Assembly: GCA_019057385.1 (NCBI GenBank)
Contig: JAHQJS010000006.1
Span: forward strand, 288,001-352,000
Reading direction: 5' to 3'
DNA length: 64,000 bases
Source: Candidatus Borrarchaeum weybense
GTDB taxonomy: Archaea; Asgardarchaeota; Sifarchaeia; Borrarchaeales; Borrarchaeaceae
Part shown: piece after piece, positions 33,987-40,421 of the stretch
Layout: each line of letters begins with the position of its first letter
How positions within the stretch are numbered: the first letter of the stretch is position 1
The notes under the pieces: model-generated
Seen by the model: only the letters and a program-made list of their open reading frames with translations
Databases searched by the model: none
What the model was told of the DNA's origin: nothing
Translations under genes and position numbers: made by a program

Positions 33987-36848
33987 TTATAATTCTAAGC
34001 TTTGGAAGCGTTCCTGAGTCAAAGCCTTGAATATGGCGACGTCTTTGATGGTTTGTGTTATTGATTCGCTAATGACTTGCGAACGTCCTCCTTGTTTTGT
34101 GATATGAAACACAGCGTCAGCTACACGCTCAAACTCAGAGTCATGAGTTACGACCAAAGTTTGTTTGGTGGGACGCGTCCGTTCGAATACCATGACAAGG
34201 TCTTTTCGGCGCTGTGTGTCAAGCATCGAGGTTGGTTCGTCTAAGATGAGAATATCTTGATTAGCTAACAAACGAGCAATTGCCATCCTGATAGAAATGC
34301 AAGCGATCACTTGTTCCCCTCCGCTCAACATGATTAGCGGTTCCGCTCGTCCTGAACGATGGATGAGCAAGTCGTAATCTTCCGTAATGGTAATTTTTTC
34401 GTACTCATCATTTCCTATTAGGTACGTGAAAATCTCCGTAGCATACTCAGATATTTCGTCCACATATTGCGTTCTAAGTATGGGAACAATTTCACGGCAG
34501 AACTGACGAACAATCGTAGCACTCTCGTATTTTAATTTCTCGGTATCTAATTTCGAGTCGATCCCTTTTAATTCTTTCATTTTCTCTTCGAGATCATGAA
34601 TACGATCCTCTTTTTCTGGAATCGATTTTTTGGCAAGGAAATCGATCTTTGTTTTTAATTCAGTTTGTTTGTGTTTTAAATTGTCTAATTCCTCTTCTAG
34701 TCGCTGGAATTCCGCGGAGTCAAACCTCTTTTGAAGGACATCTAATTGTTCTTTAGTTTTAGTATATTCGTCTTCGCATGCTTTATTCTCGCTACATTGC
34801 TTTTTTAAGTTTGAAATGTCAGATATGAGCAATATCAGTTTTTTGTATTGTTCTTCTTTCTCCTCTAATTGCTTTTTGTCCTCTGTGAGTTTTTTTTCGT
34901 CGAATTCCATTTCTAATTTCTTATATTGCTCCCGAAGGGTGTTGATTTCATTAGTACGGATTTTTATGGTTTCTTTGAGTTCAACTATCTGATGATACTC
35001 TTTCAGCATCTCTTTTTCAGAATTCAATCTCTCATACAACTGTTTAATTTTCTGATTGACCTCTTGAGTATTTATATCGCTCATTGGCAAATTTTCTAAA
35101 TTTTGCTGAGCGGTTTGCAATTCAGTTGTAAATTCTTCGATATTTGATTTTATAGACTCTATTTCTGAAACAATCAGGGAGAGTTTCGAAAACTTGCTTC
35201 TCTTGTTTTGCAAGTCTTCCATCACTTTTTTAGCGCTTTCTAGGGCATCTTCAATTAGTGCTTTCTTTTCTTCGATTTCTTGTTCCTTTATTTTAAGTTG
35301 TTCGATGAGATCATTTGATTCCTGAATAATTTTATTTTTGTGAGTACCTGTAACTTTTTGCTTACACTTTGGACAAGTTACGCCAGTTTTCAATTGTTCT
35401 ATCTCAAGTAATTCTTCATTAATTTCTTCAACTTTCTTTTGGACTTGATGTAGTTGATTACTTTCTTGTTCCCTTGTTGTCAAGAACTGTTCTATTTGCT
35501 GTTCAATCTTCTGTATTTCATTTTCAAAGTCAATTTCGTTAAGATTCTTGAAAATCATTTCCCAATTTTTTGATGATTTCGACGCCGCTTTTTCTTTTTT
35601 AGTGAGTTTTTTATTATTTTTTTGGATTTCCTTTGATAAATTATCTATTGTAGTTTTAAACTCAGTTCTACTGGTCTCGATTTCTTGAATTTCCTTTCTC
35701 AAGCTTTCAAGAGTAGCAATCTCTGATTCAATTGAATTACTCTCCCTTTCTAGAAAGTCTTCAATTTGTTCTTCTGAGATGGATTTTATTTCTGGTTTTT
35801 TTGAAACAAGATTTTCATGAGATTTAATCGATTTTTCAGTCGTTTTGTCAATATTTTTGCTCTCTTTCTCGATCTGTGCTCTCAGGTTTTTCAATTGAGA
35901 TTTTAGATCTTTTTGCTTCTCAATTTCTAACTTGATTTTTTCGGTAATTTCTTCAATAGTTGCTTTTTCAGAGTGAAATTGCGAAATTACATCTGCTAAA
36001 AAGTCGTCTTCAATAATCAGGGTGATATTCGTTAATTTTTCGATTTCTTGCTTGCTGTTTTCAATTTGATCCTTTATTCGGGATATATTCTCAAGTTGAG
36101 CGTCTTCTCTTGCAGTTAGTTCATTGATCAAGTCGTTGTCCTGTTTATACGATGAAAATTCTTCTTTTAAGTTTTTAATGATAGGTTTTATTATTTTTAA
36201 TTCTTCCTTATATGATTTCAATTCTTCTTTTAGATTTTTAAGATCCTCCTGCTCGTCGGGAAGTTTTTCAACATCACTAGCCCATTCATTCCTAATTTTT
36301 TCATACTCTTTGATACTAATTTCTGCCGCTTTTGTGATTTCACGAAGTTTTTCGAACAATTCTTGGAACGTTGCAAATCCTAGAAGTTTATCAAACAACC
36401 ATTTCCTCTTACTTGGCTGCTCCGAAGCAATCTGAGATATTTCCCCTTGAGGTATATATACAATGTTCCCGAATGCGTTAGCACTAACTCCAAGCAACTT
36501 TTCAATTTCTTGTGTGACAGTTTTTGACTTTTCGGCTACGATCTTGTTGGGATGACGATGAAGTGTGGCTTCAGAACCACTTCGCCTAATTTTCCTTCCC
36601 ACTAAATAACGTTTTCCGTCGACTGAGAAGGTTAGAGACAAGTCAGAAGATGTTTCCCCCATTCGGATCAAGAACTCTGCTTTCTTGTTCGGTACACTTC
36701 CAAATAAAGAGTACATGATAGCCTCAAAGATTGAGGTCTTTCCGGCACCGTTATCACCTATGATTATATTATGTCCTTCTAAAAAGTCAAATTCAGCATC
36801 CACATAGGTCTTGAAATTTTTCATAGACAACTTTTCAATCAATAGCAC
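33987..36848 (-). CDS. rad50: Rad50/SbcC SMC-like ATPase
   Basis: Walker A GDNGAGKT, Q-loop YIPQG, long coiled coil with CPKC zinc hook, LSGGE signature, LDEPT Walker B, VTHD. Confidence 0.92.
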   Translation of the reverse strand: MLLIEKLSMKNFKTYVDAEFDFLEGHNIIIGDNGAGKTSIFEAIMYSLFGSVPNKKAEFLIRMGETSSDLSLTFSVDGKRYLVGRKIRRSGSEATLHRHPNKIVAEKSKTVTQEIEKLLGVSANAFGNIVYIPQGEISQIASEQPSKRKWLFDKLLGFATFQELFEKLREITKAAEISIKEYEKIRNEWASDVEKLPDEQEDLKNLKEELKSYKEELKIIKPIIKNLKEEFSSYKQDNDLINELTAREDAQLENISRIKDQIENSKQEIEKLTNITLIIEDDFLADVISQFHSEKATIEEITEKIKLEIEKQKDLKSQLKNLRAQIEKESKNIDKTTEKSIKSHENLVSKKPEIKSISEEQIEDFLERESNSIESEIATLESLRKEIQEIETSRTEFKTTIDNLSKEIQKNNKKLTKKEKAASKSSKNWEMIFKNLNEIDFENEIQKIEQQIEQFLTTREQESNQLHQVQKKVEEINEELLEIEQLKTGVTCPKCKQKVTGTHKNKIIQESNDLIEQLKIKEQEIEEKKALIEDALESAKKVMEDLQNKRSKFSKLSLIVSEIESIKSNIEEFTTELQTAQQNLENLPMSDINTQEVNQKIKQLYERLNSEKEMLKEYHQIVELKETIKIRTNEINTLREQYKKLEMEFDEKKLTEDKKQLEEKEEQYKKLILLISDISNLKKQCSENKACEDEYTKTKEQLDVLQKRFDSAEFQRLEEELDNLKHKQTELKTKIDFLAKKSIPEKEDRIHDLEEKMKELKGIDSKLDTEKLKYESATIVRQFCREIVPILRTQYVDEISEYATEIFTYLIGNDEYEKITITEDYDLLIHRSGRAEPLIMLSGGEQVIACISIRMAIARLLANQDILILDEPTSMLDTQRRKDLVMVFERTRPTKQTLVVTHDSEFERVADAVFHITKQGGRSQVISESITQTIKDVAIFKALTQERFQSLEL

Positions 36849-36859
36849 ATCTTTCCCTC

Positions 36860-39884: not shown

Positions 39885-40044
39885 AATATTCTGATGTATA
39901 TTCTCTCTCTTCGACATCTCCTAACTCATCCTCCAGGAACTTGGTCGCATCAATGCATCCTTTCCCTTTTACTCCCTTAACTTTGATGTTCACATTGCCA
40001 TTCGGGTCTATCATTATTTCAAGTTCGGTTGTTTTTACACCCAT
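39841..40044 (-). CDS. DUF2997 family protein
   Basis: I..DG.V...V.G..G..C...T..LE..LG.V.....TSEYY pattern. Confidence 0.85.
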   Translation of the reverse strand: MGVKTTELEIMIDPNGNVNIKVKGVKGKGCIDATKFLEDELGDVEEREYTSEYYEEEESHTRTRVSY

Positions 40045-40421
40045 TGTCTTCTCACCACAGTTAACTTAATTTCATTATTTTCTGTTAATGTTTCGTTAGT
40101 GACTGAATATCCTTTTTTCTTTACCTCAGCTATGATTTTGTGGTAACTGTATCGTTGCGTTAGTTTTTGCAGAAACTCATTTCTATTTATCTTAATCCCA
40201 TACCAATCTGCAACGATTTCGATTTCTCCTGTTGCGCTTTTTCTCAATCCGATGTCATAACCTCGCGATGTAGTGATTTTAAGTTCAGCTTGAGTTTTTC
40301 TGCCACCATAACCTCTTGTTAGAACTTCTCCTTCTATAAAATTATAATTAAGATCCTTTAAAGACTTCTTTATTGCATCCATATCGGTTAGTTTTGTTTT
40401 AATGGTAGTAAAATGTGACAT
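40035..40421 (-). CDS. DUF1257 (Ycf35) family protein
   Basis: MSHFTTIKT, RGYGG, YDIG, VADW and QRY motifs. Confidence 0.88.
   Translation of the reverse strand: MSHFTTIKTKLTDMDAIKKSLKDLNYNFIEGEVLTRGYGGRKTQAELKITTSRGYDIGLRKSATGEIEIVADWYGIKINRNEFLQKLTQRYSYHKIIAEVKKKGYSVTNETLTENNEIKLTVVRRQWV

Follow-up and report, generated by a model that had tools for sequence, protein, structure and literature searches.

A Ycf46 ATPase module joined to an accessory Mre11-Rad50 pair in an Asgard archaeon

Gene content of the block

The 64,000-nucleotide stretch of the Candidatus Borrarchaeum weybense genome analyzed here, called the window, is C6:288001-352000 in a genome of 4.18 Mb and 8 contigs (G000; C6 and C8 are its contigs, and other G and L labels designate other genomes and loci). 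A previous reading of the sequence alone had pointed to six co-directional genes at 33987-40421, in which a Ycf46 ATPase module precedes an Mre11-Rad50 pair. Sequences that cluster with the rps2 of the window carry the NCBI labels Promethearchaeota/Lokiarchaeota, in keeping with an Asgard archaeon. All six open reading frames (ORFs) are intact and lie on the minus strand at this place. The features are the following.

40876..41499, minus strand: rps2, left host flank (domain match, synteny)
40035..40421, minus strand: DUF1257 / Ycf35 protein, 128 aa, MSH start (Pfam E=2e-23)
39841..40044, minus strand: DUF2997 protein, 67 aa (Pfam E=1e-19)
39690..39884, minus strand: small ORF3, ~58-64 aa, with a hairpin common with DUF2997
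38189..39721, minus strand: Ycf46-family tandem AAA+ ATPase (Pfam AAA + lid, motifs, model)
38084..38188, minus strand: ycf46-mre11 spacer with TATA-like TTTAAAAA and Shine-Dalgarno-like GGGAGTGA
36860..38083, minus strand: Mre11, 407 aa (Pfam Metallophos, alignment, tree)
33987..36848, minus strand: Rad50, 953 aa (Pfam AAA_23/SMC_N, motifs)
33990..34079, minus strand: clade-specific C-terminal extension of Rad50, residues ~924-953
33300..33817, minus strand: 5' part of ipk, probably a foreign allele (identity profile versus G004/G002, synonymous divergence)

The likely starts are 40421, 40044, ~39884, 39721 (for ycf46, probable from the homologue start), 38083 and 36848. The first four genes overlap as described, by 10, 44 and 32 bp. 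The gap of 91 bp reported before mre11 exists, but it measures 90 bp to a TTG at 38098 or 105 bp to the favored GTG at 38083 (P0001 = 407 aa). Pfam bears out the DUF1257, DUF2997 and AAA assignments, whereas the third ORF, labeled DUF2997-like, is a real gene that resembles DUF2997 only loosely. As noted previously, herA and nurA are absent from the block. The archaeal Mre11 and Rad50 models of NCBIfam ranked top for the window proteins, with scores below their cut-offs. An assembly chimera is ruled out, as both block junctions are bridged by contigs from another sample of the same study, and the mre11-ycf46 junction by a contig from an independent study.

The TATA-like TTTAAAAA lies ~30 bp upstream of the likely mre11 start, and the ycf46-mre11 gap is only -4 to 38 bp in eight related loci presented below, versus 90-105 bp in the window. 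An internal promoter is possible in the 38084..38188 spacer. A scan for sigma-70 promoters and terminators, with models unsuited to archaea, gave results at chance level.

Mre11 displays all five phosphoesterase motifs, invariant in the alignment (D18/H20, D59, GNHD 93-96, H176 and GHxH 203-206). Rad50 has intact Walker A, Q-loop, CPKC zinc hook, LSGGE signature, Walker B/D-loop and H-loop. The pair therefore has, by sequence, the constituents of an Mre11-Rad50 complex: the five Mre11 motifs, and a Rad50 with split ABC ATPase, coiled coil and CXXC hook. The ratio of non-synonymous to synonymous substitution rates (dN/dS) versus relatives is 0.10 for Mre11, 0.10 for DUF1257 and 0.18 for DUF2997.

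Ycf46 consists of two AAA rings. Ring 1 is degenerate, with Walker A lost, and ring 2 is intact (Walker A GVQGCGKS, Walker B ILWIDE, sensor 1 and arginine fingers), with a non-aromatic pore loop, GVVG. The model, with a predicted local distance difference test score (pLDDT) of 91, opens directly with the AAA fold, lacks an N domain, and matches p97/Cdc48 D1-D2 over the full length (Foldseek E ~1e-23, TM up to 0.67). The protein is 50-59% identical to bacterial Ycf46 and matches phrog_8638 with E=3e-157, while it reaches 113 bits against the Cdc48 model TIGR01243, for which the cut-off is 803. The degenerate N-terminal and active C-terminal AAA, with adjacent genes for DUF1257 and DUF2997, are those of a Ycf46 module.

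DUF1257 is predicted to be a compact alpha/beta protein (pLDDT 91) with a KA1-like topology. The best VIA match, a middling one, is a KA1 domain (Z 7.1, root-mean-square deviation of 3.4 over 83 residues); Foldseek gave no match at E<=0.001 and the Atlas fold search returned the protein's own family only. Ycf35 has been described as uncharacterized (PMC13060386). DUF2997 contains an invariant GxxC (G27 and C30, alignment of 46). ORF3 is considered a real gene because of its substitution pattern (13 synonymous versus 5 non-synonymous codon changes against one relative, dN/dS 0.25) and its 44% identical paralogue in a second Ycf46 module of the genome (L034). It is also kept in L275/L276 and missing from the Hodarchaeota-type loci, and is thus an optional member. 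Its likeness to DUF2997 is a 14-column hairpin match (probability 62%), and it lacks the invariant GxxC. In another Asgard genome, an ORF at L171:8162-8479, apart from any ycf46 match, apparently joins DUF2997 to an ORF3-like hairpin.

Recurrence, phylogeny and history of the unit

The linkage of the module to mre11-rad50 was sought in other genomes, as the sequence-only reading had proposed, and DUF1257-DUF2997-ycf46-mre11-rad50 was found in 8 other loci. In L055 (Hodarchaeota), L056, L135, L137, L138, L139, L140 and L155, ycf46 is directly upstream of mre11, followed by rad50, with DUF1257 and DUF2997 before ycf46 in every contig long enough to show it. Several of these contigs are short. 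The survey comprised 400 sampled Asgard genomes, of which 4, from three families, carry the unit; metagenome contigs were examined in addition and also hold it, and a metagenome scan with an Mre11 query gave no confirmed match. The flanks of the nine loci are mostly different. No integrase or transposase was seen beside the copies in the loci read.

The linked proteins have distinctive C-termini. All nine Ycf46-linked Rad50 end 84-85 residues past Walker B with a conserved ~25-residue extension terminating in LTxxRFxxLE[IL], whereas the complete herA-linked Rad50 end 57-77 residues past Walker B and none has the extension. A profile of this tail found no other match in the loci or the genome. 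All nine linked Mre11 are devoid of the Lys-rich C-terminal tail, often ending LDxF, that is typical of most herA-linked relatives. Mre11, Rad50 and HerA interact in Sulfolobus (PMC2288612). The gain of a Rad50 tail and the loss of the Mre11 tail suggest that the partners have changed. Mimicry of the Ycf46 C-terminus by the Rad50 tail was considered, both ending LE[IL]/IEI. It is not claimed, because the tail profile misses Ycf46 and Ycf46 proteins without the nuclease keep the motif.

In the Mre11 tree, the Ycf46-linked sequences, including that of the window, group in a single clade (100/98), which branches within the herA-linked Asgard Mre11 and is nearest to Helarchaeota-labeled operons; the closest Mre11 outside the clade are encoded in nurA-herA operons. 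The Rad50 head tree recovers the same clade with a support of 100. In the Ycf46 tree, computed with FastTree where viral sequences were included, the linked copies form a clade (99) among bacterial Ycf46. Subgroups agree across the three trees. The phylogenies indicate that a bacterial-type DUF1257-DUF2997-Ycf46 module replaced nurA-herA before an Asgard mre11-rad50 once, and that the ensemble then moved and was co-inherited as a whole.

It had been suggested that the window pair is a second Mre11-Rad50 complex, and a separate canonical locus was indeed found at C6:821643-830036. The order there is nurA-like, herA, mre11, an inserted IscB-like gene and rad50. This operon, 80-97% identical in the congeners G001 and G004, is regarded from this conservation as the vertically inherited copy, from which the window pair stands apart in the trees. 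The NurA call (C6:828771-830036) scores 20.1 bits against a Pfam cut-off of 21 and is supported also by position. Grouping the window Mre11 with the vertical Mre11 was rejected by the approximately unbiased (AU) test (p=2e-74), and with it duplication within the genome as the source of mre11. As for the remaining carriers, a complete nurA-herA-mre11-rad50 operon is present in G068, and the two operon halves lie at contig ends in G112; no second Mre11-Rad50 turned up in G109, a genome that is 83% complete. The unit is therefore extra to the vertical copy in 3 of the 4 carrier genomes.

Other observations concern these operons. The IscB-like RRXRR-HNH gene between the vertical mre11 and rad50 (C6:824262-825464, L031:6263-7465) is absent in G001 and G004, and a second RRXRR-type fragment lies downstream of the vertical rad50. 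At C8:92600-95300 (L032:4614-7282), nurA and herA form an orphan pair that lacks mre11-rad50 and might be a partner in trans. In L191 (G029 C1:396000-412000), mre11-rad50 is duplicated in tandem behind one nurA-herA, the first mre11 being split in two frames.

Two of the three observations that the sequence-only reading had named as speaking against it, namely that this is the sole, vertically inherited mre11-rad50 and that the linkage exists in no other genome, do not hold, because there is a second Mre11-Rad50 and the linkage recurs; the third is the internal promoter discussed above.

The block had also been described as an inserted unit occupying the position of the mevalonate kinase gene, mvk. 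Insertion is supported by four congeners, in which rps2 is followed by a short spacer and ipk, with neither mvk nor the block. The position is that of mvk in a genome of the same class (rps2-mvk-ipk), but displacement of mvk by the block is ruled out by the four congeners: the block entered a site that mvk had already left. The mvk gene was found elsewhere in the genome, at C6:471018. The first 300 bases of ipk are 73-82% identical to G004/G002, climbing to 98% at the 3' end, whereas G004 and G002 are 81-96% identical to each other there. The fni and rps2 genes are 96% identical to G004, and the proportion of synonymous differences (pS) is 0.36 in the 5' part of ipk versus 0.11-0.12 for fni and rps2. 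A more distant congener was probably the donor of the block, which would have entered by homologous recombination; one of the crossovers would have fallen within ipk, the 5' part of which is the probable right-hand recombination tract. Metagenome relatives with 78-88% identity exist.

In a ~98% identical strain from another study, 34043 is joined to 40823 and the last 56 bases of rad50 are retained. As these bases encode the conserved tail of the clade, the block was once present in this strain and has been deleted. Parts of the block are covered by further contigs from the same sequencing run. The rest of the window's genome showed no sequence homologous to the block, and no target-site duplication is obvious. 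The rps2-ipk spacer (40422-40875 and 33818-33986 in the window) is variable, its length (~170-560 bp) and sequence differing in all five congeners, and strains from other studies diverge at 40670-40703.

These comparisons show, at the level of sequence, an accessory, horizontally moving and selected five-gene unit with remodeled tails, beside the host's own Mre11-Rad50.

Ycf46 modules elsewhere and the possible role of the unit

Large viral contigs often encode Ycf46 (367 matches); the neighborhoods of the best 80 loci were considered. Both DUF genes are present in 37 of these 80 loci and an mre11-like gene in 19. In 18 of the latter, ycf46 comes ~2-4 kb after mre11 and a split rad50, and DnaC-like, DnaB and polymerase genes come next. 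The Ycf46 of 16 of these loci form one clade separate from the Asgard clade. The viral neighborhood is thus a supporting, independent association with DNA-end and replication proteins; it is not decisive, because phage replication genes cluster anyway.

The fuller viral order, with a naturally split Rad50, is rad50N-mre11-small coiled coil-rad50C-orf-ycf46-dnaC-like-dnaB-primase-like-dnaE (L219, L226, L254, L204, L202 and 13 other loci); L202 keeps this order with a Ycf46 from a different part of the tree. In nine viral loci (L212:2940-4666, L218:2939-4707 and seven more), JAB-like and ThiF/E1-like genes, called by eye from the sequence, precede ycf46 by a few kb, and genes for radical SAM, DUF2997 and DUF1257 proteins are found downstream; a ubiquitin-like link of the module is possible in these phages. 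A virus-like contig of G346 encodes a 794-residue Ycf46 with a ~280-residue insertion between the rings (L160:4640-7024). The second, divergent Ycf46-DUF1257-DUF2997-ORF3 module of G000 (C6:640780-643400, L034:5781-8400) apparently belongs to a large integrated element, where MCM, PCNA-zinc finger and membrane-protein genes and a serine recombinase lie within ~25 kb.

It is tentatively proposed, with a confidence somewhat short of even, that the Ycf46 ATPase targets or serves Mre11-Rad50 at DNA ends, independently of HerA. This is supported by the recurrence in nine loci, the single clade for each protein, the tails, the short gaps, the intact motifs, the purifying selection, the p97-like fold and the viral parallel. 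In human cells, p97 takes Mre11-Rad50-Nbs1 (MRN) off breaks (PMC8170441). Rad50-Mre11 would bind and cut DNA ends as usual, with no hand-over to HerA-NurA. The Ycf46 ring would be a remodeler resembling Cdc48/p97, with the missing N domain supplied in trans by the small proteins, DUF1257 and DUF2997, as putative adaptors. Driven by ATP, Ycf46 would pull protein off the end, either Mre11-Rad50 itself, which would be recycled and its resection limited, or an end-blocking protein, and the new Rad50 tail would be its handle. The ATPase and the nuclease are presumed to be physically coupled. The likely role would be to clear protein-blocked or foreign DNA ends under stress. That the unit constitutes an undescribed DNA-end machine, in which a Cdc48-like ring, recruited by the small adaptors and a dedicated Rad50 tail, works without HerA-NurA to load Mre11-Rad50, release it or clear its path, is a bolder proposal and rather improbable. 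A complex prediction for Ycf46, DUF1257, DUF2997 and the C-terminal part of Rad50 scored 0.00, which gives no answer and is uninformative either way.

Several points weigh against an action of Ycf46 on Mre11-Rad50. The non-aromatic pore loop of the active ring weakens the analogy with unfoldases. With a single origin, the nine Asgard loci amount to one evolutionary event. None of the bacterial Ycf46 loci read has an mre11 match, and five Hodarchaeota Ycf46 modules without nuclease form one branch inside the linked Ycf46 clade, most simply explained by one secondary loss; since the module usually comes without Mre11-Rad50, the ATPase can do without the nuclease. In all genomes tested, herA genes are present at other sites and could serve in trans. 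Finally, the module is repeatedly accompanied by a small radical SAM (Fer4_12) gene, which is perhaps its actual partner. This gene follows rad50 in L056 and L135 (L056:13673-14245, L135:11439-12026), is adjacent to ycf46 in L154 (L154:9012-9602) and occurs in 21 of the 80 viral loci; no homologue was found in G000. The invariant cysteine of DUF2997 could be the target of the radical SAM enzyme.

The unit might instead be a dedicated system against viruses and plasmids in the manner of Lamassu or Wadjet, in which Rad50-Mre11 senses and cuts linear, hairpin or protein-capped invader DNA and Ycf46 is an activator or disassembler. This overlaps with the proposal above, from which it differs mainly in purpose, and is judged unlikely. 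Consistent with it, the unit is patchy (4 of 400 genomes), moves between families, is polymorphic within the species and is extra to the vertical copy in most carriers; DNA-methyltransferase-like genes lie upstream in two loci, and Ycf46 modules are common on viruses and present on the integrated element of this genome. However, no PADLOC model fits, the LmuB and IetA matches reflecting a generic fold, there is no separate effector gene, and most flanks are housekeeping or transport genes rather than defense islands, on contigs that are in several cases short.

An explanation by shared regulation only, given equally little credence, supposes that a Ycf46 operon induced by stress captured mre11-rad50 behind its own promoter. 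The encoded proteins would act separately, and the spare Mre11-Rad50 would use the host HerA-NurA or none. The ycf46 operon of the cyanobacterium Synechococcus is indeed induced in severe stress, for which (p)ppGpp is required (PMC13683863), the module survives the loss of the nuclease, in L056 and L135 mre11-rad50 separates ycf46 from the radical SAM gene, two genes that are neighbors in L154, and the orphan nurA-herA pair on C8 is available. Yet regulation alone leaves unexplained the conserved new tail of Rad50 and the lost tail of Mre11, and ycf46 is upstream in 9 of 9 copies of the Mre11 clade with readable upstream DNA. The block is very improbably mere cargo, a fragment of a viral or integrative-element replication and recombination module of no benefit to the host: the 18 viral loci and the replication genes and recombinase near the second module invite the idea, but the Asgard Mre11 and Rad50 descend from chromosomal herA operons, the viral ycf46 belong to other clades, the loci read are flanked by no integrase or transposase, and the genes are under purifying selection.

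Comparison with known systems

Ycf46, Ycf35 and DUF2997 are widespread in plastids, cyanobacteria, many bacteria and large phages, and no molecular substrate for them was found in the literature searched. The combination of known parts seen here, the Ycf46 module and Mre11-Rad50, was not found in that literature either, most subscription journals being outside the reach of the search. The unit gives a first testable lead on the module, with Mre11-Rad50 as candidate substrate and the 25-residue tail as candidate handle, so that the question can be addressed with five purified proteins. If the proposal is true, the unit would be a prokaryotic, ubiquitin-free parallel of the control of MRN by p97 and would provide the first defined substrate for Ycf46/Ycf35/DUF2997. 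An Asgard Mre11-Rad50 under selection without HerA-NurA in its operon is in a state that eukaryotes have reached by an independent route.

With the archaeal herA-nurA-mre11-rad50 end-resection operon (PMC2288612, PMC13748450), the unit shares the ancestry of Mre11 and Rad50, their motifs and hook, and the mre11-rad50 order. It contains neither herA nor nurA, which are missing also from the 8 related loci over the length available, and differs further by the upstream Ycf46 module, the new Rad50 tail, the missing basic tail of Mre11 and its status as an accessory rather than the vertical copy. The three adjacent, overlapping families are those of the Ycf46/Ycf35/DUF2997 module of bacteria, plastids and phages, to which the window unit adds Mre11-Rad50 and ORF3, without a radical SAM gene.

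Cdc48/p97 acting on MRN (PMC8170441) has the same tandem AAA D1-D2 and the job on Mre11-Rad50 that is proposed here. Ycf46, however, has no N-terminal double-psi barrel, a dead first ring, a non-aromatic pore loop and a bacterial ancestry, and no ubiquitin genes accompany it; the likeness is one of analogy, not descent. SMC-type defense systems (Lamassu, Wadjet, SbcCD-like) similarly associate an SMC-like ATPase with a nuclease in a patchy, mobile operon, whereas the unit comprises a full-length Rad50 with its hook and a true Mre11, without LmuA/LmuC or kleisin/KITE; apart from a generic LmuB fold match, the other five block proteins match neither the LmuA nor the LmuC model. The large-phage module rad50N-mre11-rad50C-orf-ycf46-dnaC-dnaB also has ycf46 near mre11/rad50 on one strand, but with a split Rad50, the opposite order, proteins of unrelated clades and mostly undetected DUF1257/DUF2997. 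Compared with these systems, the unit would work like an Mre11-Rad50 complex with a different motor partner, and belongs neither to the HerA-NurA operons nor to Cdc48 or Lamassu.

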